Below, one piece after another: positions 42,015 through 56,311 of a stretch of DNA of 64,000 nucleotides. Under the pieces are notes generated by a model that was given only the letters and a program-made list of their open reading frames with translations, was not told the origin of the DNA and ran no database searches. The number at the start of each line of letters is the position of its first letter. The stretch's first letter is position 1. The translations under genes and the position numbers were made by a program. Source of the DNA: an uncultured Verrucomicrobiae bacterium (lineage in GTDB: Bacteria > Verrucomicrobiota > Verrucomicrobiia > Limisphaerales > Palsa-1400); NCBI GenBank assembly GCA_963707025.1, contig CAVPOM010000018.1, forward strand, positions 256,001 to 320,000. Direction: 5' to 3'.

Positions 42015-42140
42015 CTTGTCCGCCGTAGCTCTAGCGAAGGCGGATCATCCGGCTTGCAAAAGGCAGGAAGGCGAAGCCGACCTGTCCGCCGTCTTGTCCG
42101 CCGTAGGCCCGGCGAAGGCCAAAGGCCCGGCGAAGGTGGA
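42015..42140. repeat. REP-like cluster (GTCCGCCGTAG...GCGAAGGCGG family)
   Basis: CTTGTCCGCCGTAGCTCTAGCGAAGGCGGA and variants; related unit at 48389-48418. Confidence 0.65.
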
Positions 42141-42590
42141 ATGCCAACACGCGAACGCTCCGCCCCAACAAGTGCCTGGTCGTGAAGTCGCTGGATTCCA
42201 GCTTGCGCCCTATCTGCCCTTCGCAACATGGAATCCACCGCCATCACCACCAGGCAGTTAACGCCAGGCGAGGAGAAGCCGCTTTTGGGGTGTCCGCCTT
42301 GTTTTCCGCTGGCGCGGAGGGGGAGAAATCAGACTGGCCATAACTCGCTCTCAGCCGCCGCGAGGGGCGGCAATTTCCTTTTTCTGGCTTCTACCCGCTG
42401 GCTATCCGGTTGTTTGTGCCCTGCTGCTTGCAGGCCCCTGACTCGAAATTGACAACGCTATTTATCAGGAGTCCTCACACGTCATCCCAGCCTTGATTAT
42501 CAAGCCTTTACAGCATTTTACCTCATCCCGAATCCTCCCGAATCTGCCTGCAAAATCCCATACAGTATCAGATTTACCACCAGTCACCCA

Positions 42591-43392
42591 TCAGGCCAAA
42601 ATATCGTTGAAGTCCACATCGAATGCCTTGCTCAAAAACGCCACGGTTTCGGGCTGTCCATCAAGAGACGCACGCACATGGGTGGTCGTGTAGATGCCTG
42701 ATCTGCGCTTCATCTGCGCCTGTTCTCGCGGGAGAGACTTGATCCAATCCACCATCGCAACATATTCCGACTTCTCGGCGGAATCCGAATCGAACAGCCA
42801 TCTGCGGGCACAAGGTGACAAGAGGCTTCCCCTGAATGAAAATCTGATTCACCGGCATTGGCTTGGTCCGTATGCGGCCAATACCAACGTAGCCGCGACC
42901 CTTGAGATACGCGGCGAAGACATCTCCGGGATGAAAACCACAAATAGCCTCCCGCCAACGTTTTTCGTCACCTCCAGCCGCGATGAAACTATAACGGCGA
43001 CAATCATCCCAAGCTCTGCGGTTGCACTCGCCCACATTGAAATAATAAAGACGATTCTGGAAATCGAATCCCGGGAGGTCCCGGTGAAAAGTGTCGTGAG
43101 GTCTAAATCTATCTGAAAAATGCCCAGCAACCTCATTCGTCGTGAACTTACCGAGCTTCCAAAGAAGCGTTGCCTCTACCAGTAAAGCTTGATCCTCCGT
43201 CAAACCGCGCGCGACAACACGAACAATTGGCTGGCATCCAGCGCTACGAATGTCGGCGATCCGCAGCGCTTTCCGCGACTTCCCAACATCCGCCAGATGA
43301 ATGTCTTTCCTGCTCCCACAACCCTTGCCGTAGTAGAATTCCTCGTAGTTGCGAGGATCAATGTAAACGTACACGTAATAGTCGGACATCAT
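42591..43392 (-). pseudogene. LEM-3-like GIY-YIG nuclease cassette gene, frameshift near 42793
   Basis: YYVYVYIDPR..EFYYGKG.G.R ... EATL; C-terminus continues in the 42591-42821 frame; GGGAGA RBS. Confidence 0.8.
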
Positions 43393-43486
43393 TTTTTCTC
43401 CCAGTATCCTGCCGCGATCCACATAGTCAACCCGCAACTGTCAATTTCCAAGCCCACGGCCACATCTCATGCAACGCGCGAATGCT

Positions 43487-43546
43487 GCCTAACGACATCG
43501 AGTTCAGCGGCGAGCGTAGCGAGTCCGCTGCATCGAGGGGTTAGGC
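43487..43546 (-). mobile_element. Integron attC recombination site (60 bp)
   Basis: Minus strand GCCTAAC CCCTCGATGCAGCGG ACTCGCTACGCTCG CCGCTGAACTCGATGTC GTTAGGC: RYYYAAC and GTTRRRY ends, internal imperfect palindrome; upstream ORF stop TAA lies within R''. Confidence 0.92.
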
Positions 43547-44104
43547 AGGGCCGAGGTAACGCCTGAGGACGGGCAGCCCCGCAGCGAGAGAAAAGGAGCT
43601 GAAATTGAAATCGAGATCTTCAGGTGCGCCACGTGTGAGAACGATCCGGTCTGGCTTATCGAACCCAAAATAGAACATGCGATCACGTTTGCCCGACCGC
43701 GTCCGGAGCGACGACAGTAGATCAACGATTTCCTCCCGCCGAAATAGGAGCATCAACGGTAGCCACCAGGACGATCTGGTGCCGCCGCCGTGGCCAGTTA
43801 CATTCGGATAAAGCGACGCGAGAACGAAGAAGTCTGCTCGCTCCGAAACCGGAAACGCCCGGAACCAGATAACGAACCGAAACTTTGCTTTGTGAGGTTG
43901 TTCGTAGGCGCGCGAATACTTGACTTGCAGCGACGCCGTGCGAGTGACGCCACCACGAAGCCGACGCGAAAGTAGTAGGTCTACGCCTTTCTCTTGGCGG
44001 GACAGCGGCGCGAACACCGAATACCCTTGGCTAGCCGGAAGCGCCTTCATGAGCTGGTCGGCTACAAGCCACTCGGAGTACGGGAGGGTGAGGATTGGCT
44101 CCAT
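43541..44104 (-). CDS. Integron cassette gene, PD-(D/E)XK-like nuclease fold candidate
   Basis: E...GVDLLL...SLQVKYSR motif; stop inside attC. Confidence 0.65.
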   Translation of the reverse strand: MEPILTLPYSEWLVADQLMKALPASQGYSVFAPLSRQEKGVDLLLSRRLRGGVTRTASLQVKYSRAYEQPHKAKFRFVIWFRAFPVSERADFFVLASLYPNVTGHGGGTRSSWWLPLMLLFRREEIVDLLSSLRTRSGKRDRMFYFGFDKPDRIVLTRGAPEDLDFNFSSFSLAAGLPVLRRYLGPA

Positions 44105-44122
44105 AGTTAATATAAAACAGGT

Positions 44123-45574
44123 CACAGCCATCCCACAGGAAATTGGAAAAAAGTGTTGGCTTGACCATTTGAACCTGCCACAAGGCAGGCATGAAAAACA
44201 AAAAAATCAAACCAACACGGTCCCGGTTTAACGTTTTGCGCCAGATTTGCAATCTCATTCCTGCGCATGAAGTCTCCAAAATAGCGCGGGAGACCGGGGC
44301 TCTGGATAAGTCGCGCACCTTCAGTCCGTGGAGTCACACGGTCAGTTTGCTGGACGCGCAACTCACCCATTGCATCGGACTCAACGATCTGTGCGACTCG
44401 CTGCAATTGCATTCCGGGCCGCTGTCCACTTTGCGCGGCGCCAGCGCCCCCAGCCGCAACGGCCTCTCCCACGCCAACCGGGAGCGTCCGGCCCAGATGG
44501 CCGAACAACTCTTCTGGCGGGTCCTGGAGCATTTGAAAGCACAGACGCCCGGCTTTGCCGCGGGCCAGCGCCGTGGCCCCGCCTTCCGTTTCAAGATGCC
44601 CATCCATGTGATTGATAGCACGACCATGGAACTGGTGGCCAACTGCCTGGACTGGGCCAAGCACCGCCGGCGCAAGGCCGCCGCCAAAACCCATATGCGG
44701 TTGAATCTGCAGAATCTTTTGCCCGGTTTTGTCATTGTGGACACTGCCGCCGAGCACGACAACCGACGGGCGCGGGAACTGTGCGCCGACTTGAAGAGCG
44801 GCGAAATCGCCTTGTTCGACAAGGGTTATGTGGACTTCGGCCACTTGCGGGATTTGGACGGGCGCGGGGTCTTTTGGGTGACGCGGGCCAAGGAGAACAT
44901 GGGCTATGAGGTGGTGCGGAAAATGCCCGCCTCCAGAGACCCGAAGATTTTGCGCGACGAAGTGATCGTCCTGAGCAACGAGAACAAACCCGCGCCGGAG
45001 TTGATGCGCCGGGTGGTGGCGCTGGTCGAGATTGATGGAGAGGAACGGGAAATGACCTTCCTGACCAACAACCTGGAGTGGAGTCCGCGCAGCGTGGCCG
45101 ACCTTTACCGCTGCCGCTGGCAGATCGAAGTCTTCTTCAAACAAATCAAGCAGACCTTGCAGTTGGCGGATTTTCTGGGCCACAACGCCAACGCCATGCG
45201 CTGGCAGGTGTGGACGGCGCTGTTGACCTACGTGCTGTTGCGCTACCTCAGTCACCTCTCCAACTGGGCGCACAGCTTCACCCGGCTGTTCACGATTTTG
45301 CGGGCGGCGCTCTGGGAGAAATATGATCTGCTCAATTTGCTGGCGTGCTATGGGACAGCAGGCGGCAGCTTTCGCCACTTGGCGCCGGCCCGAGCAGGCG
45401 TATTTCCCCGGCTTCCAATAAAGCTATGGGACAGCACACGCGCCCAAACAGGCGCATACCAAACCCAAAAGCCAAACTCGGAAAAATCAAAATCTCATTT
45501 TACCCCGAAGACCAATTAAACCCTTGCAAATGAACAGGTCAGCACCAGACTTTTCCCCTTATGAGACGGGTGTG
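44123..45574 (+). mobile_element. IS4-family insertion sequence, copy 2 (1452 bp)
   Basis: Same termini as copy 1; 9-bp direct repeat AAAACAGGT at 44114-44122 and 45575-45583. Confidence 0.95.
44191..45519 (+). CDS. IS4 transposase with altered C-terminus (+1 C near 45385)
   Basis: Matches copy 1 except one V>M change and GGCGCCGGCCC vs GGCGCGGCCC, extending the ORF to 442 aa. Confidence 0.9.
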   Translation: MKNKKIKPTRSRFNVLRQICNLIPAHEVSKIARETGALDKSRTFSPWSHTVSLLDAQLTHCIGLNDLCDSLQLHSGPLSTLRGASAPSRNGLSHANRERPAQMAEQLFWRVLEHLKAQTPGFAAGQRRGPAFRFKMPIHVIDSTTMELVANCLDWAKHRRRKAAAKTHMRLNLQNLLPGFVIVDTAAEHDNRRARELCADLKSGEIALFDKGYVDFGHLRDLDGRGVFWVTRAKENMGYEVVRKMPASRDPKILRDEVIVLSNENKPAPELMRRVVALVEIDGEEREMTFLTNNLEWSPRSVADLYRCRWQIEVFFKQIKQTLQLADFLGHNANAMRWQVWTALLTYVLLRYLSHLSNWAHSFTRLFTILRAALWEKYDLLNLLACYGTAGGSFRHLAPARAGVFPRLPIKLWDSTRAQTGAYQTQKPNSEKSKSHFTPKTN

Positions 45575-45606
45575 AAAACAGGTTGTTCGAGTATTACAAT
45601 GACCAA

Positions 45607-45840
45607 TTGAATTCTGACGAAGCGGTGCGGCGACTTACGGTAGTTGTTCGACGCAAATATCTTGCGCTCGCGACCGAGCGGACTTGCTGCGCTTGACTCA
45701 GGCGATATTGCGACTTCCTCAAAGGGCTGCCGTTGCATTTGCCAAGTGAACATAAACTGGAACGGTTTCTGACCGTCCCGGCCAAGAACGATGTCGCCGC
45801 AAGAATCCAACGTCAAGCCTTTAACCAGACGAAACGATAA
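45607..45840 (+). pseudogene. intI: Integron integrase N-terminal (SAM-like) fragment
   Basis: Hand translation MNSDEAVRRLTVVVRRKYLALATERTCCA*LRRYCDFLKGLPLHLPSEHKLERFLTVPAKNDVAARIQRQAFNQ resembles IntI N-termini (R.H.S..TE..Y..W...FLT.LA...V..STQ.QA.NA); internal TGA at 45694; divergent from cassettes. Confidence 0.8.
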
Positions 45841-46215
45841 AACCCTCTGCCGGTCTCGCCATGCGCGACCCTTTAGATAAACTCTCAAAAGAGCCGATCA
45901 ATTTCGGCAGACGTTCCACCCAAAACTCGACGTTGCAAAACAGCTTGGCCGTGAAATCCTCCGACCATAGTTGGCTCTTGCGCAGATATTTCCGCTTCTC
46001 TGGCGGGGTGTTCGCCAAACGGTATCGCCGCATGACCCGCCGCAGTTTCACCGCCTGGCTTGCGGTCACTTCCCGATCCTCTCGATTGCCAAGCGGCAGG
46101 TGTTCCCGGCCAATCACACCCCAATACCGGCCCGGCTTTTGTTCCATCGCCGGCATTTCCTCTTTGTTCGCCATGTAACGCTTGCCCGCATAAGCAAACG
46201 CGCCCTTGATTTTAA
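45821..46215 (-). pseudogene. C-terminal remnant of a rolling-circle replication initiator (HUH Rep)
   Basis: AFAYAGKRYMA (motif-3-like YxxK) followed by PGRYWGVIGREHLP and KLRRVMRRY; N-terminal HUH part absent. Confidence 0.6.
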
Positions 46216-46260: not shown

Positions 46261-46341
46261 AAACAGGAGAGGAAAACACCGGGGGCTTGGCGCGCTGTCT
46301 TCATGGTGTCGCGGCTCATGACATATTTCTTAATCTGGAAT

Positions 46342-47791
46342 CACACCCGTCTCATAAGGGGAAAAGTCTGGTGCTGACCTGTTCATTTGCAAGGGTTTAA
46401 TTGGTCTTCGGGGTAAAATGAGATTTTGATTTTTCCGAGTTTGGCTTTTGGGTTTGGTATGCGCCTGTTTGGGCGCGTGTGCTGTCCCATAGCTTTATTG
46501 GAAGCCGGGGAAATACGCCTGCTCGGGCCGCGCCAAGTGGCGAAAGCTGCCGCCTGCTGTCCCATAGCACGCCAGCAAATTGAGCAGATCATATTTCTCC
46601 CAGAGCGCCGCCCGCAAAATCGTGAACAGCCGGGTGAAGCTGTGCGCCCAGTTGGAGAGGTGACTGAGGTAGCGCAACAGCACGTAGGTCAACAGCGCCG
46701 TCCACACCTGCCAGCGCACGGCGTTGGCGTTGTGGCCCAGAAAATCCGCCAACTGCAAGGTCTGCTTGATTTGTTTGAAGAAGACTTCGATCTGCCAGCG
46801 GCAGCGGTAAAGGTCGGCCACGCTGCGCGGACTCCACTCCAGGTTGTTGGTCAGGAAGGTCATTTCCCGTTCCTCTCCATCAATCTCGACCAGCGCCACC
46901 ACCCGGCGCATCAACTCCGGCGCGGGTTTGTTCTCGTTGCTCAGGACGATCACTTCGTCGCGCAAAATCTTCGGGTCTCTGGAGGCGGGCATTTTCCGCA
47001 CCACCTCATAGCCCATGTTCTCCTTGGCCCGCGTCACCCAAAAGACCCCGCGCCCGTCCAAATCCCGCAAGTGGCCGAAGTCCACATAACCCTTGTCGAA
47101 CAAGGCGATTTCGCCGCTCTTCAAGTCGGCGCACAGTTCCCGCGCCCGTCGGTTGTCGTGCTCGGCGGCAGTGTCCACAATGACAAAACCGGGCAAAAGA
47201 TTCTGCAGATTCAACCGCATATGGGTTTTGGCGGCGGCCTTGCGCCGGCGGTGCTTGGCCCAGTCCAGGCAGTTGGCCACCAGTTCCATGGTCGTGCTAT
47301 CAATCACATGGATGGGCATCTTGAAACGGAAGGCGGGGCCACGGCGCTGGCCCGCGGCAAAGCCGGGCGTCTGTGCTTTCAAATGCTCCAGGACCCGCCA
47401 GAAGAGTTGTTCGGCCATCTGGGCCGGACGCTCCCGGTTGGCGTGGGAGAGGCCGTTGCGGCTGGGGGCGCTGGCGCCGCGCAAAGTGGACAGCGGCCCG
47501 GAATGCAATTGCAGCGAGTCGCACAGATCGTTGAGTCCGATGCAATGGGTGAGTTGCGCGTCCAGCAAACTGACCGTGTGACTCCACGGACTGAAGGTGC
47601 GCGACTTATCCAGAGCCCGGTCTCCCGCGCTATTTTGGAGACTTCATGCGCAGGAATGAGATTGCAAATCTGGCGCAAAACGTTAAACCGGGACCGTGTT
47701 GGTTTGATTTTTTTGTTTTTCATGCCTGCCTTGTGGCAGGTTCAAATGGTCAAGCCAACACTTTTTTCCAATTTCCTGTGGGATGGCTGTG
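46342..47791 (-). mobile_element. IS4-family insertion sequence, copy 3 (1450 bp)
   Basis: Same termini; 9-bp direct repeat ATCTGGAAT at 46333-46341 and 47792-47800. Confidence 0.95.
46495..47723 (-). pseudogene. IS4 transposase, -1 frameshift near 47617
   Basis: AGAGCCCGG vs AGAGCCCCGG in copy 1; ORF split into 47379-47723 and 46495-47568. Confidence 0.88.
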
Positions 47792-48141
47792 ATCTGGAAT
47801 TTGTAGCTGCCGAAGTTGATCAAAAGTCCATCCTCAAGCTTGGAAGACTTGAGATAGCCCAGGATTTGCGCAACATGCTCTTCGGTCGTAGCCCGGCACG
47901 CCTTCAACTCCACGACCAAACAGCCCTCCACCAACAAGTCGGCTAAATAGTCTCCGAGCAAAGTCCCGTCCTCATCGTAAACCTTGAGCGGATGCTGCTG
48001 TTTGACCTCGATGCCAGCCTTGCGCAGCCGATGGACGAGAGCGTTTTCATACACCTTCTCCAAGTGCCCGTGCCCGTGATAGACATGAATCGCGTAAGCT
48101 GTTTTCCTCACCACGTCACAGATCTCATTAATCGTTTTCAT

Positions 48142-48170: not shown

Positions 48171-48614
48171 AGTCTCGTTCAGTTTGGTTTCGTCAGGCGT
48201 GTCTTTTCCAAGGCAGTTCAGCGGCGGCACGGATTCACTTTGAAAATCTGACGCGGACGATATTAGCCGCGCCTGCACCGCTTGCAAATCGAAACCGCCA
48301 GGGGACACCGGCATATGCGCTTTAGACAAGCCCAGCGGAGGCGGGGGGCGGCGCTGGGCGCCACCCCGCCGCCTCTCGCTGTCGCCAGCCTGCCCGCCGT
48401 AGGCCCCGCGAAGGCGGGTTGTCACCACATCCGGCCGCAGAACCGGCGAGCAGTGTAGCTCAGTGCCCGGTTCTGCTCGATTTACCGCGCTGCCGGGAGA
48501 TTCCGGAGTTCCAAACCCATTACAGGTTGCCGCGCTCATCGTCCGTTCCCCCTATCGCCAAAATTGCACCAAGAGCAGGCTTGCAAACAATGTCCCGTAC
48601 TGTATGCTTCCAAC

Positions 48615-48848
48615 ATGGCTCTTTCAGTTGAAATGGTCACAGAAGAAGCGATGAATCTGCCGGCAAGCGGACGCGAGTTGCTGGTGGAAAAGCTCCTTGC
48701 CAGTCTGGCAGGCGAGGCAAACCCGACGGTGGAACGCGCCCATTTGGATGATGTTCGGGAGCGCCGCGCCGCTGTCAGCTCTGGCAAGTCGAGGTTTGTT
48801 GAGGGGACAGAAGCAAGCAGGACGGCCCGCGCCGCGGTGCGGACATGA
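48615..48848 (+). CDS. Addiction module antitoxin (TIGR02574-like)
   Basis: EEAMNLP...RELLVEKLLASL...ERA...VRER...SGK; ATGA overlap with toxin. Confidence 0.8.
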   Translation: MALSVEMVTEEAMNLPASGRELLVEKLLASLAGEANPTVERAHLDDVRERRAAVSSGKSRFVEGTEASRTARAAVRT

Positions 48849-50836: not shown

Positions 50837-53800
50837 CTATGGCGACACGACCACGTAGAAGCGCTGGGCATCGGCCAGATTGATGGCGCCATTGAAGGTG
50901 AAATTTCCGCCGCCATCAAAAGAGCCGCTCCCCGCTGTGGTCCAGCTTGCGAACGGCAAGGTCGCATCGGTGGCGGAGAGGACACGATAGGTGGCGGTGG
51001 GCGACCCGCCGGTGCCGCTGATGGTCAAGGCGGTGCCGGAAACGGCAATCGCGCCAATGCTGACCGGAATCGGCGCCATGACCGAGAGAGTGCCGTTGAC
51101 CGCCAGGTTGTTGGTGTTCCAAATCAAGTTCGGCCCGGGGATCGCCGGCACAATGCTGGTGAACGAGCCTGCGTAGGCCGCGGCGCTGAAGAGCTTGAAG
51201 CTGTCGCCGGCCTGGAGGGCGCTGCCGCTGTTCGGCACGGACAAGGCGCCGGCGAAGGTGAGTGTTCCAACGGTCAAGAGCACCGAGTTGGATGGCGCCG
51301 CGCCGCGGTTGATGGACATGGCGGTGGTGCTGCCCGCAAGGTCCGTCACGCTGCCCAGGACGCTGAGCGAGGCCACCGTGCCGGAACCGCCCGGGGAGAG
51401 GGTTCCGCTGTTGGTGACGCTGCCGCTGATGGCGCCAGTGCCGAAATTGGTCCCCGTGGAGGTGATGGCGACATTGCCGCCAATCGTTCCCACGCCGGTT
51501 TCGGTCCCGTTGTTGGTGACACTGCCGCCGATGGCCCCAGTGACATTAAGTGTCGCCCCCGCCGCCACGGTCACGGTGCTGGCCGCCGCCAACGAGCCGC
51601 TGACGGTGAGCGTGCCATTGCCGACTGTGGTGGGGCCGGTGTAAGTGCAGGCTTTGGCCAGCGTCAGAATGGCGGCGCCCAGCTTGGTCAAGCCGCCGTC
51701 CGGCGTGGCGCCCAAGGTGCTGTCGTGTTGGAGGGGTTCAAGAACGCTGATGGCAAAACCGCCGTCATCCAGGATGGCGCCGCCGCTCTTGACGATGGTC
51801 GTGATCGGAATGATGGGAGCGACGGTGCTTCCCTGGTAGAAGGTCGTTGAGTTCGTGCTGGCCTTAAGCGTGCCGCCATCGAAATTAAACACGGCGGTGG
51901 AACCAGTGGAAGACGACGTTGAGTTTGCGGTAGCGGTGCCGACTCTGGCGACCGTCAATATCCCGCCATTGAGGTTGACCGTGCCTGGAATGCTGCTGTT
52001 GATGCTGCGCGATACATCCAGCGTGCCGCAGTTGACAGCCCCGGAACCACTGACCGTCAGAACGCCCGGTCCACGGCTGGCGACGTAGAACGTGCTGGTG
52101 GGGTCGGCCGCAGAGCCGATATTCATCGTCCCGCCGCTGTTGGTGACAAAGGAAGCGCCGCCCGTGCCGTTGGCCCCTTGAAACTGGCTGCCGATGTTGA
52201 GTGTCCCGCCCGTTTGGTTGATCATGCCGGTCGAACCACTCGCAATGCCGGTGTTGAAGCGAGCCAACGTGGTCAAGGTTCCGTTGACCATGTTGAACGT
52301 GGCGGTGGCATTGGCCAGATCGCCAACCTGGTTGTCCTGGCCGTTGATCCCGGCATTGGCCGGGGTGCTGGTGAAATTGGGGGCGCTGCTGGCTGAACCA
52401 AAGTTGAAGGTGCCGGCCAGGATTTCAAAGCCCCACGGCAGGGTAATGGGAGTTGACGCCGGATTATCCATCAAAGTCCAGTTGGCGCTGCTGTTGGTCA
52501 TCTCGAGGGAGTTGGTCCCAGTGCCGCCCCCAGCGGGACAGGTGAGGTTGTTGGATAGAACGCCGTAGCCGTTGAAGAAATTGGACGTGGCATTGGCCAG
52601 CTCATTGAGTCCTCCGCCAATGATCAACGGTGCGGCGGCGGAACTGCCGCCATCGAAGGCAAAGCTGCTGCTGAAATCAATGCCCAGATTAATCGTCTGG
52701 GGATTGGATGAGTCGTTTATGAGGATGCCGTTGCCCATCTGAATATTATTGCCGTTGAGGACGAATGGCCCGGCCCCGGCCACGAAAAGAATGTTGCCGT
52801 ACTGGCTGTCCGCCGGGGTGTCGTTGGTGTTGTCGAGCCGTGTATTGCCTGCAAAGTACAAGGGACTGCCGGGCGCGATGGTGATCCCGCCCCAATTGGC
52901 GCCATCGCTCCAGTCGCTGCCGGTCACACTGCCTCCATTCCACAGCGGCGGCCCGCTCCCAGGATTGGCCGTGATGTTGACCTGTCCCGCAGTGCTGGTG
53001 TCCAGGGTGAAGGCGTAGCCGGTGGAAGTGGTCGGTACCGCAGGCGCGGTATTTAAGGTCAATGTGCCCGAATAATTGAAGAGGCGGTAAGGAACACCCA
53101 ACTGCAAAAGCCCCCCCAGCGCGTTGATGGAGAGGGTGCCGCCATTGAAGGTCAAATCGCCATTGACGACCACCAAATCGTTGACGCCGCCACCGACGGT
53201 GTTGACCGCCGCGAGGTCAAAATCCACCGTGCCCGAGCTTTCCAGCGTCAGACCGCCGCCCGCCGTAATGGTGCCCGCGGTGTTGGCGCCTCCCGGAGTC
53301 AGCGTCCCGCTTAAATCCACCAATCCCAAGGCCGGGCCGACGCCGGAAAGAGTGCTGCCCGAAGAGGTGGTGACCGCGCCGCCCAGGGTGTTGTTCAGGT
53401 TCAAAGTCCCGGCCGTAAGCGTGCTGGCGCCGGTGGCGGCGGTATGGTCGCCATTGAGATTAAGAGTGCCGGCGTTGACCTGAAGACCACCGGTAAAGGT
53501 GTTGACGCCGTTGAGATTAAGCGTGCCGGTGCCGGTGTATTTGGAGAGGATGCCCTGGCCGCTGATCACTCCGTTCAGATTGAGCGTGGTGGTGCCGTCC
53601 ACCTGGATTTGGCCGTAGGAATTCAAGCCGTTCAAGGTGATGGGGCCGGTGACGTTATTCGAGCCGCTGTTGTTGCGCAGCGTGCTCAGGTCCTGGAGAA
53701 TGATGTTCTTGTTCAGGGCGTTGCTGGTGTTGTAAAGGAAAAGAACGGCGCCGTCCTCGACGGTGAGATTGGCGGCGGGGTTGCCCAGTCCGGTGGTGCC

Positions 53801-56311
53801 TCCCTCATAGTCCAGTGTGCCGCCCTGGATATCAATGTTGGCCAATTGGGGATCCACCCAGGCGCTGACGATGCCGAGGAATCCAGTTCCCAGGAGGGTC
53901 AGGTTGTAGCCCTGGCCGCTGGTGCTCAAAGCCGCTGTGCTCGTGGCGGGCGAGGCGCCGACCACGCCGGCATCGCCGCCAGGGGAGCGGAGATCCCAAC
54001 GCCCTGCGGTGGGACCGCCGGAAGTGCTGAAAGTGGTGTCGCCGGTCAGAGTGACAAATTCCAGCCCCAAATCATTGGGCACGGTCGCGCCGCTGTTGTC
54101 AATGGCGCCTTGAACGCCAACCCCGGCGCCCTGGGCGAAGACCGGTATGGCCCCGAGGCTTTGGCCGCTCAAATCGAGGATCGCTCCGTTGTTAATGGTA
54201 ATTCGGTTGGTGCCCAACGCGGTCGCGCTCCCCGCCTGGAGAATGCCGTTCGAGACGGTGACGCTGCCGGAGAAAGTATTGGCCCCGCTCAAGTTGAGCG
54301 TTCCGCCGCCGCTTTGGACAAGGGAGCCCGAGCCGGAAATGAGGTTGGGAAAACTGCTGATGCCACCGTCGAAGATGAGGGTGCCGTTGTTGACCACCGG
54401 GCCGGTCCCCAAGTTGCCCGACCCGTCGTTGTTGCCGACCTGCACGGAGCCTGCGCTAATGAGCGTGCCGCCGCTGAAGGTATTTGGCGTGAATTCATCC
54501 ATGATGAGAAGGCCCGAGCCTTGCTTGACCAGTTGCAGATGCAGTGAGGGCGTGGGATCGGCCAGAGGGCCGATGCCGCTCAAGGTGTAAGTGACCGCAT
54601 GGTTGCTCACCGTCAGCGTGGAAGGAGTGAGCTGCGTGGTCAATTGCACCAGGCCGGGCGTCGGGCTGCCGGGCGCGGTCGTGTCATCAAACTGCACGTA
54701 GTCCAATTGATTATAGTATGTCGGGGCGCCTTGCGCGTTGGTCCAGTTCAGGCTCGTGGCCACATCCCAGGCCTCCGTGCCATTGTGCGCGGTGTCGGTT
54801 CCAGCCCACCAGAGCGATCGCGCCGGGACGGGACCGCTGGTCAGCACCAGATCAATCAGGTTGGCGGTGTTGGTTTCGAGATGCCCGACATAGGGCACGC
54901 CGGCCAGGGACGGCAACGGGGTGGTGAGCACGAAATTAGTCAGGCTGAGGGTGTTGCTGTAATTGATGAGGTGGAGGGTGACCGGATAGCCTGCCACCGT
55001 CGGCAATTGAGTGATAGTGATGGTGTTGGCCGAGCCGCCCAGGCTCAAGGCCCCAACCACCACATTGGTTGAGGAGTCGCTCGGAACCTTCAGCAGCAGC
55101 GTCGTATTGGTCATCGTCAGCGTGTTGGGATTGGCCAACGGGCCGGTCAGTCCCGACAAATCAAGGGTCGTATTGGTGTACAAGGTGATCGCGGAAGTGC
55201 TGGGAAGATTGGCGGAACCGGCCAAGACCAATGTTCCTCCCTCAACCACCGTGGCGCCGGTATAAGTGCTCAAGTTGGAGATCACCAAAGCGCCGGGGCC
55301 GGTCACGGTCAGGCCGAAGGCGGTGTTGCTGATGCCAGCGAGGGTCAGGGTGCCGGCCAGATTGGTGATGATGGTATTGGCGGTCAGGATCACGGCGTTC
55401 GTGCCCAGATTCAGGCTGCTGCTGCCTGGGAAGGTGAAGTTTCCGCCCAGTTTGTAGGTACCTTGGCCAAGGGCAAGCGTGCCCGCTAAGCCACTGGTGT
55501 TGTCAATCGTCCCCCCATTGATCGCGAAGCTGGCCGCAGGTCCGGCGAATCCTTGGAAGGCGTCGGCCAACGCAGTCGCCGACCCAAATTGAAGCGTGCC
55601 GGCCGTCAGCGTGAGGGAACCATTGGCACTCCCGTTGGCAGCGCCAAAATTGCTGGTTTTAGTTTGGTTCAGTTGCACCGTCCCGCCGGGCATATTCATG
55701 ATGTTGGGAGTAGTCGCGTTTCCGTTGGCCAGAAAAGCGTCCTGGAAGTTAATTATGCCATTGCCGGCAAAGGTGACGGGGGTCTTGTTAAAATTGAAAC
55801 CATTATTATTTGCCGTGGTGGTCAGGGTCAACGTGGCGCCCGAATTGACCGTCCATGTTGCAGCAGCTCCCGCCCGCACATTGACCGTGCCGCTAAAAAT
55901 GACATTGATATTGGCGCTGCTGCCGGGGCTGTTGATGAGAACGCCATTCACATTCTGGCCCAGATCCAAATTAATCGTGACGGTTTGATTATTAAAGGCC
56001 GTGTCCGTTCCATTGTTGCCGATGGTCAGTTGGTCGCTGGCGGTCCAAATTGCCAAGGGGGTTCCGGTGTCCGACGTGGTGTTCCAGAAGATGCCGTTCA
56101 TGTCGCCGGCGACGTTGCCTGCGGCGAAATAAAGCGCCGGACCGTTGGCGGCAAAGGCAGCCGGGGCCAGGCACCCAAGCGCCAGCATCGTTCCGGCCCA
56201 GCCGCCAAAGAACCACCCTGGGCGGCGCCGCGGCGTCAGGAACATCGGGCGGGGAGATGTTTTGCAGCAATTCTTCATGGGTTCCGACTGATTTTGGGTT
56301 GTTGCTTTCAT
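50837..56311 (-). CDS. Large secreted protein with autotransporter-associated beta-strand repeats (1824 aa)
   Basis: Repeated L.K.G.GTL.L.G.NT(FY)(ST)G...V..G.L units; G/T/N/S-rich; long signal region; ends FYVVVSP. Confidence 0.9.
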   Translation of the reverse strand: MKATTQNQSEPMKNCCKTSPRPMFLTPRRRPGWFFGGWAGTMLALGCLAPAAFAANGPALYFAAGNVAGDMNGIFWNTTSDTGTPLAIWTASDQLTIGNNGTDTAFNNQTVTINLDLGQNVNGVLINSPGSSANINVIFSGTVNVRAGAAATWTVNSGATLTLTTTANNNGFNFNKTPVTFAGNGIINFQDAFLANGNATTPNIMNMPGGTVQLNQTKTSNFGAANGSANGSLTLTAGTLQFGSATALADAFQGFAGPAASFAINGGTIDNTSGLAGTLALGQGTYKLGGNFTFPGSSSLNLGTNAVILTANTIITNLAGTLTLAGISNTAFGLTVTGPGALVISNLSTYTGATVVEGGTLVLAGSANLPSTSAITLYTNTTLDLSGLTGPLANPNTLTMTNTTLLLKVPSDSSTNVVVGALSLGGSANTITITQLPTVAGYPVTLHLINYSNTLSLTNFVLTTPLPSLAGVPYVGHLETNTANLIDLVLTSGPVPARSLWWAGTDTAHNGTEAWDVATSLNWTNAQGAPTYYNQLDYVQFDDTTAPGSPTPGLVQLTTQLTPSTLTVSNHAVTYTLSGIGPLADPTPSLHLQLVKQGSGLLIMDEFTPNTFSGGTLISAGSVQVGNNDGSGNLGTGPVVNNGTLIFDGGISSFPNLISGSGSLVQSGGGTLNLSGANTFSGSVTVSNGILQAGSATALGTNRITINNGAILDLSGQSLGAIPVFAQGAGVGVQGAIDNSGATVPNDLGLEFVTLTGDTTFSTSGGPTAGRWDLRSPGGDAGVVGASPATSTAALSTSGQGYNLTLLGTGFLGIVSAWVDPQLANIDIQGGTLDYEGGTTGLGNPAANLTVEDGAVLFLYNTSNALNKNIILQDLSTLRNNSGSNNVTGPITLNGLNSYGQIQVDGTTTLNLNGVISGQGILSKYTGTGTLNLNGVNTFTGGLQVNAGTLNLNGDHTAATGASTLTAGTLNLNNTLGGAVTTSSGSTLSGVGPALGLVDLSGTLTPGGANTAGTITAGGGLTLESSGTVDFDLAAVNTVGGGVNDLVVVNGDLTFNGGTLSINALGGLLQLGVPYRLFNYSGTLTLNTAPAVPTTSTGYAFTLDTSTAGQVNITANPGSGPPLWNGGSVTGSDWSDGANWGGITIAPGSPLYFAGNTRLDNTNDTPADSQYGNILFVAGAGPFVLNGNNIQMGNGILINDSSNPQTINLGIDFSSSFAFDGGSSAAAPLIIGGGLNELANATSNFFNGYGVLSNNLTCPAGGGTGTNSLEMTNSSANWTLMDNPASTPITLPWGFEILAGTFNFGSASSAPNFTSTPANAGINGQDNQVGDLANATATFNMVNGTLTTLARFNTGIASGSTGMINQTGGTLNIGSQFQGANGTGGASFVTNSGGTMNIGSAADPTSTFYVASRGPGVLTVSGSGAVNCGTLDVSRSINSSIPGTVNLNGGILTVARVGTATANSTSSSTGSTAVFNFDGGTLKASTNSTTFYQGSTVAPIIPITTIVKSGGAILDDGGFAISVLEPLQHDSTLGATPDGGLTKLGAAILTLAKACTYTGPTTVGNGTLTVSGSLAAASTVTVAAGATLNVTGAIGGSVTNNGTETGVGTIGGNVAITSTGTNFGTGAISGSVTNSGTLSPGGSGTVASLSVLGSVTDLAGSTTAMSINRGAAPSNSVLLTVGTLTFAGALSVPNSGSALQAGDSFKLFSAAAYAGSFTSIVPAIPGPNLIWNTNNLAVNGTLSVMAPIPVSIGAIAVSGTALTISGTGGSPTATYRVLSATDATLPFASWTTAGSGSFDGGGNFTFNGAINLADAQRFYVVVSP

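Follow-up and report, generated by a model that had tools for sequence, protein, structure and literature searches.

A decayed integron in a Limisphaerales genome and a probable cassette promoter at the common boundary of integrase gene stubs

Several described systems come close to the subject of this study, a dead integron with a remnant of its integrase gene (intI) in a verrucomicrobial genome; they are summarized here as far as the available parts of the cited sources extend. In Xanthomonas, intI has been lost recurrently and in a lineage-specific manner through stop codons, frameshifts and deletions, the cassette array being retained (10.1101/2025.06.18.660453, citing Gillings and colleagues). 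Clusters of attC sites lacking an integron integrase nearby (CALINs) are defined by two or more attC sites, and a search with a C-terminal profile detected intI pseudogenes near 15 of 279 of them; integrons of Verrucomicrobia were already reported in the same work (PMC4889954). The cassette promoter (Pc) of class 1 integrons lies on the antisense strand of intI1, 223–252 bp from the attI crossover, where it overlaps codons 32–39 (PMC8876359). Integrons are also carried on prophages and phage-plasmids (PMC9892861). The DNA analyzed here, hereafter the window, is a stretch of 64,000 nucleotides (G000:C18:256001-320000; contig CAVPOM010000018.1 of assembly GCA_963707025.1) from an uncultured Verrucomicrobiae bacterium of the order Limisphaerales. 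Its own genome, labeled G000, comprises 6.96 Mb and is 88% complete; G002, G004, G018, G027 and similar labels designate relatives, and L-numbers individual loci. The window almost certainly contains a real decayed integron. Taken singly, this locus is an ordinary dead integron with one proven cassette. The new part is probably a boundary, common to the whole family, at which the intI stubs end, together with a probable portable promoter just inside it.

A decayed integron in the window

The attC site is 60 bp long (43487..43546), with its top strand on the minus strand. Its R''/R' boxes, GCCTAAC/GTTAGGC, form a perfect pair, and hairpin folding of the segment gave DNA z-scores of -3.1 on the plus strand, which is the bottom strand of the site, and -2.1 on the minus strand. 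A covariance model was trained on 20 other attC sites of the clade, the window site being excluded. This clade-specific model ranked 43487–43546 first among 16 window matches at E<=5, with 28.2 bits (E = 5.5e-6), the runner-up reaching 16.1 bits. The site described in the original prediction is thus borne out by an independent model, by its boxes and by its fold, including the position of the upstream gene's TAA inside R'': the stop codon of open reading frame (ORF) A occupies 43541–43543, so that the site follows an ORF on the cassette strand. It differs from the 99-bp type typical of the clade. No convincing second attC was found in the 64-kb window with filters off, using a clade-specific model that may miss a divergent site. 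BLAST against 72,556 plasmids yielded chance matches only. Hand-made regular-expression scans failed to pick up the window site, and the covariance model was used instead.

Elsewhere in the genome, at least 19 further attC matches were obtained at E<=0.002, with 150 of 6850 candidates scored; four of these sites had been in the training set, and the window's own site is not among the matches listed. Among the latter, arrays of 7, 4 and 4 sites are found on C5, C7 and C6, respectively. The locus had been called CALIN-like, a label that does not hold, since at least two attC sites are needed and the window has one; as in a CALIN, no integrase accompanies it, the stub alone being present. The rarity of integrons in this lineage, which the same prediction implied, is likewise contradicted by the earlier report in Verrucomicrobia and by the 19 further attC matches and several stubs of this genome.

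The intI 5' stub (45607..45840, plus strand) comprises 77 codons and a stop, with a TTG start and a TGA at codon 30 (45694–45696). Codons 1–73 are homologous to intact IntI, and the homology stops at 45824; no catalytic domain or integron-specific insertion is therefore left in the window. With an X at the internal stop, the stub matched Phage_int_SAM_4 (Pfam, E = 2.4e-4) and, as its sole NCBIfam match, the integron integrase TIGR02249 (E = 0.004), both below cut-off. Four IntI of 316 aa from the same genus and family (L020–L023) share 79–81% amino acid identity with it over 73 aa. These proteins exceed the TIGR02249 cut-off (278 bits vs 265 in relatives) and retain, as read by eye, the catalytic residues and the integron insertion. 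The expected IntI-like N-terminus with an internal TGA was thus recovered, its best matches being integron integrases. A search for an intact intI and related attC sites elsewhere returned, besides the attC matches, further stubs at C5:295907, C6:264796, C5:222855 and C6:334218, counted with a five-sequence profile of one clade that does not fully cover the stubs of other IntI classes. No IntI above the TIGR02249 cut-off was found in this 88%-complete genome.

The attI site is split into two parts. The cassette-proximal part (44105..44122, minus strand) was recognized by alignment with intact attI and is directly followed by the ATG of ORF A; the intI-proximal part, or intI upstream region (45584..45606, minus strand), is 87% identical to the attI of G002 over 45577–45606. 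Between them lies an insertion sequence (IS) of the IS4 family, 1452 bp long (44123..45574, plus strand), with terminal repeats and a perfect 9-bp target duplication (44114–44122 / 45575–45583), because of which its flanks must once have been contiguous. The transposase scores 248.9 bits against NF033592 (cut-off 115), and 44 full copies of the element are present in G000, in mostly AT-rich targets. Both flanks of the IS are attI sequence, a location that had been missed initially. The attI of relatives reads ...ATATTAATT GTTAGGC, followed by a cassette, and the GTTAGGC core is also present in the C6 copy; in the window copy, the flank divergent from intI is conserved and the core (GTTRRRY type) is gone. 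A LexA box near attI, based on a verrucomicrobial motif, does not fit by eye. At three other loci (L133:4503-4602, L117:3370-3420 and L134:562-661), an attC is fused to the start codon of an intact intI in place of attI, and their arrays contain a second attI-stub unit farther along.

The conserved attI flank, the true attC and an IntI N-terminus nearest to intact integrases of the genus and family together support a formerly complete integron at this locus, as had been proposed. One could imagine that a hairpin arose by chance next to a piece of some unrelated recombinase, the stub alone being below the Pfam and NCBIfam cut-offs; such a coincidence is hardly credible against the independent attC model match, the 79–81% identity to proteins above the TIGR02249 cut-off and a conserved attI of the kind that precedes attC arrays.

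Common stub boundary and predicted cassette promoter

Used as a DNA query, an intact intI matched 19 of 31 family genomes, mostly over attI and the 5' piece of the gene, and 19 of 401 genomes of the order at E<=1e-30. The length of the stubs is not random, a feature overlooked in the original prediction: of the 40 stubs linked to attI, 30 terminate between reference positions 298 and 340, that is within 43 bp of a 951-bp gene, seven being shorter and three longer (six end points were extended by hand over an internal gap). Most of the junctions carry no IS, and many downstream contexts show no mutual similarity. The stubs are 73% to 97% identical to the nearest intact gene, and their monophyly was rejected by the approximately unbiased (AU) test (p=1.3e-9) on a tree of the 5' region comprising 33 stubs and 7 near-full-length genes. 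Substitution rates show no bias by codon position in 31 stubs (0.092/0.079/0.085 at the three positions), unlike those of intact genes (0.063/0.025/0.139); the method discounts alleles that intact genes also have, whereby the rates at third positions are lowered.

Just inside this boundary lies a promoter-like element, which is most likely the Pc, judging from comparison of the sequences. Its reference form on the cassette strand is TTGATT-17-CATCCT, the -35 box ending at position 297. In the window, the predicted Pc (45788..45816, minus strand) consists of a -35 box TTGACG, a 17-bp spacer and a -10 box CATCGT, within intI codons 61–70. The predicted element is found 224–252 bp from the attI crossover; by eye, no class-1-type Pc was seen at the homologous codons 22–29. 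Its five sigma70 key bases (T,T,G; A and T of the -10 box) require three parsimony steps, base-matched sites giving an expectation of 14.9 (P=0.003), as measured on 33 stubs found by whole-gene BLAST without any promoter pattern. The same mask placed elsewhere was equally low in steps in 2 of 378 placements, and the middle bases of the -10 box vary freely. Across the upstream DNA of the genome, the spacing of TTGA..A...T peaks at 16–17 bp (115 occurrences at 17, 96 at 16, 55–89 elsewhere). Of the 31 family genomes, 20 contained the element in a promoter-pattern search, which gave no match in a reversed control. In the window, the IS puts 1.45 kb between the predicted Pc and cassette A, so that this copy is probably silent now.

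The same search revealed short scraps of intI around the element, in which the intI homology ends just past the -10 box; in the extreme cases, only about 45 bp of intI survive, directly ahead of a gene. An ORF of at least 60 aa starts 6–13 nt past the -10 box in 7 of 29 scrap rows, and in 2 of 29 when the reverse direction is read, all rows being kept, including two distant full-length integrases and two partial ones. Three of the scrap ORFs (L089, L173 and L187) end at an attC, and none of the seven ORFs behind promoter scraps gave a Pfam match above cut-off.

Several side observations concern the element. An internal stub deletion of about 40 bp (reference 221–268) recurs in L047, L061, L062, L046 and L092; in L047 and L062, it places an antisense ATG 9 nt past the -10 box, and a similar promoter and ATG unit is fused to other ORFs in L171 and L177. 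Promoter scraps without attI occur at L083-type loci and at G000:C6:334090-334118 (L032), C10:136493-136521 and C4:256590-256618. No attC was detected for the ORFs downstream of them, such as a 290-aa prepilin-type gene on C6, where the -10 box now reads TATCCT; from their arrangement, co-option of the promoter is possible. A second integron class with a different attI type is present in G000 at C5:202030-205786 (L205) and C7:101887-104150 (L193). In this attI type, that of the 7-site C5 array and of the C7 array, a near-consensus TTGACA pair lies outside intI; the C5 copy has a stub of about 70 codons and, by eye, the C7 copy no intI remnant. This class, with its promoter outside intI, is a naturally occurring control for the Pc proposal.

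The reading that we favor, with a probability of about 0.65, is that the erosion of intI halts at the boundary because the retained piece would hold the Pc. Deletions removing the integrase would be tolerated or favored, while those entering the Pc would silence the array and be purged, so that erosion would stall just upstream of the -35 box. The window intI has likewise been trimmed to codon 73, likely because codons 61–70 carry the predicted Pc on the opposite strand. A number of points weigh against this reading. The match of the -10 box (CATCCT) is weak, the element escaped a consensus scan, and a motif learned by expectation maximization (EM), which had no clean sigma70 shape, ranked it 127–423 of 3039. 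The site was picked after the breakpoints had been seen. The scraps were mostly found by a promoter-shaped pattern, so that their conservation is no evidence, and some of the ATGs at +9 come from the antisense strand of intI itself. By eye, attI holds another promoter-like pair. Several stubs share downstream junctions, and 30 of 40 thus overstates the number of events; gene conversion could also mimic the polyphyly of the stubs. A "promoter-up" shift to TTGAC, seen in 7 of 33 stubs, was rejected as a signal, being matched or exceeded at 4 others of 40 A sites.

The position of the breakpoints, which coincide with an AT-rich patch, counts against Pc retention as well, and could mean that AT-rich codons 72–80 draw IS insertions and deletions, the stub ends being independent of function. 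The mostly AT-rich targets of the local IS4 and the L133 junction, which abuts a transposon-like inverted repeat, agree with such a hotspot. Yet a hotspot predicts neither the base-matched conservation of T,T,G/A/T among dead copies, nor homology ending just past the -10 box, nor start codons 6–13 nt farther on, and the scarcity of IS at the junctions does not fit it either; we consider it unlikely. Inheritance of the end point from one or a few old deletions, the stub element having spread on islands and been homogenized with intact copies, would explain the existence of junction families, one of which keeps sequence from just past the intact stop codon, and the junction with a replication gene (Rep) that the window stub shares with G002 and G004. 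It is rendered distinctly improbable by the rejected monophyly, the dissimilar downstream contexts and the wide range of identities to the nearest intact gene, and Pc retention could hold alongside it.

Integron integrases also recombine at secondary sites, with a consensus of the GWTMW type, and IntI might have cut at a GTT/GAT site inside its own gene. The window junction, G|TTAAAGG on the cassette strand, coincides exactly with an AA|C step, and AAC is found at the junction position in some intact alleles. The junctions nevertheless scatter across about 40 bp, the most frequent family is not on an AAC or ATC step, and the window junction is not followed by half an attC, which makes self-cutting very improbable.

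Carrier islands, cargo genes and surroundings

Small tRNA-integrating islands would disseminate integrons of this type as cargo, a rolling-circle Rep being present in some of the islands; this would account for the several copies per genome. L089 is a complete 4.9-kb island of the same genus, with tRNA-Pro, a phage-type integrase, two attC, an intI scrap, Rep and a tRNA-Pro repeat. L122 is a 7.4-kb tRNA-Thr island with an integrase, an array, a frameshifted intI and a tRNA-Thr half, in which no Rep was seen. Behind the intact intI of G002, G018 and G027 lie a convergent Rep gene, a gene resembling that of a single-stranded DNA-binding protein (SSB), recognized from its size and location alone, and a tRNA-like 3' end. 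The Rep is an HUH Rep by its PF23343 match in G018 (E 5e-7), the value in G002 being 0.059. Against general island carriage, Rep adjoins only 3 of 9 mapped near-full-length intI loci, with the Rep markers of this analysis, and at L135 the sequence seems to continue into host genes. Island carriage is thus established for some copies, and would extend to that of the window.

In the window, neither an intact tRNA nor a phage-type integrase was recognized, an att remnant being present instead. This remnant (42434..42575, plus strand) is the junction left by an element targeting tRNA-Ser(CGA), with a 13-bp anticodon-loop core and an arm, and it matches the L077 junction behind the 5' half of tRNA-Ser. 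Next to it, a backbone segment repeated many times in G000 (42140..42375, no strand assigned) aligns with L089:9640-9880; in the L089 island, the same segment adjoins the array at its distal end. On the other side, the stub is fused head-on to the C-terminal fragment of a putative rolling-circle Rep (45896..46210, minus strand), 94% identical in amino acids to the G000:C13 copy; this fusion had not been noticed previously. A second IS4 copy (46341..47792, minus strand) interrupts the C-terminus of a PDDEXK_3 gene (47683–48141), which occupies the place of the middle of the Rep gene. The 5' end of Rep with the upstream hairpin region of the island (48225..48506, minus strand) precedes an addiction-module antitoxin gene (48564–48848). 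Both Rep fragments match the C13 ORF and gave no Pfam match, which weighs against their presumed identity as Rep.

The proven cassette gene, ORF A (43541..44104, minus strand), encodes 187 aa with a PD-(D/E)XK nuclease fold, in which E11, D42 and Q60-x-K62 are conserved; its 87 homologues are mostly 184 aa long with an MEP start. The predicted structure has a predicted local distance difference test score (pLDDT) of 89, and its best structural match is I-Ssp6803I (Z 11.6, root-mean-square deviation 3.0, 125 residues aligned; Foldseek E 8.5e-4). PADLOC returned no match for ORF A or three cassettes of C6. A peat-metagenome contig aligns to ORF A from 4 nt ahead of the ATG as far as R'' only (window 43540–44108) and continues beyond it without alignment, which suggests the same cassette with a different attC. 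ORF B (42591..43392, minus strand) is a LEM-3-like GIY-YIG nuclease gene (PF22945), frameshifted near 42800 and thus read in two frames. Its homologues, of 264–274 aa, are up to 88% identical, and one of them (P0088) has PADLOC matches to PDC-S11 and PD-T4-3. Two cassette genes had been announced; this stands for ORF A, which has its attC, and not for ORF B, which is not demonstrated as a cassette because no attC lies behind it. ORF B starts 94 bp past the attC, and the gap (43393–43486) contains, by eye, a TTGACT-16-GATACT pair that may be its own promoter. The lower GC content noted for both ORFs is real (0.567 for ORF A and 0.522 for ORF B vs 0.62 in the neighboring gene and a genome value of about 0.60). 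Both cargo genes are nucleases, one with defense-family matches, in keeping with the role of integrons as phage-defense stores put forward in partly available sources.

A family of small tRNA-anchored islands is also present at G000:C4:63642-72514, C13:5579-7585 and C5:270900-271650, with interchangeable Rep types, toxin–antitoxin pairs and a common short peptide ahead of the tRNA repeat. Two dense tRNA gene clusters, at G000:C2:106545-112159 (10 genes) and C8:72468-81806 (11 genes), are possibly on mobile elements. An ORF of 1824 aa with autotransporter-like repeats occupies window positions 50837–56311.

Comparison with known systems

A wider proposal, which we regard as tentative, is that of a Limisphaerales integron class carried on small tRNA-integrating rolling-circle islands, the decay of which would leave a portable Pc of about 45 bp, reused for attI-less cassettes and chromosomal genes. 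If true, many "CALINs" would be expressed arrays with hidden N-terminal stubs. Neither Pc-bounded intI stubs nor, for this lineage, integrons carried by small Rep islands were found in the titles and abstract openings searched, which leave most subscription papers uncovered; small tRNA islands with a rolling-circle Rep are thus an integron carrier not met in that literature. The family pattern provides a testable account of how integrase-less arrays arise and stay expressed, and the stub boundaries a way to locate from genomes alone the Pc, unknown for most environmental integrons.

As in CALINs, attC sites occur in G000 without a working integrase nearby, in the arrays of 7, 4 and 4 sites, whereas the window has a single site. 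N-terminal stubs are moreover invisible to the C-terminal profile search of PMC4889954, as described in its available part, and the family pattern shows why such pseudogene searches miss the origin of integrase-less arrays. The loss of intI with the array left behind is shared with Xanthomonas, where a single locus (ilvD) is concerned, in contrast to the several copies per genome on tRNA-anchored islands seen here; the stubs studied here have a common deletion boundary, and none is described in the accessible part of that report (10.1101/2025.06.18.660453). Carriage by an integrative mobile element recalls the phage integrons, within the available part of PMC9892861. The carriers differ, being islands of about 5–8 kb with a phage-type integrase and, in some cases, an HUH Rep and an SSB-like gene; in the islands read, virion genes were not recognized. 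The likeness to class 1 integrons, as far as the available account goes, resides in a Pc antisense within intI, at 223–252 bp from the crossover there and at 224–252 bp for the element predicted here. The two are differently placed in the gene, at codons 32–39 in intI1 and at codons 61–70, by prediction, in another IntI clade.

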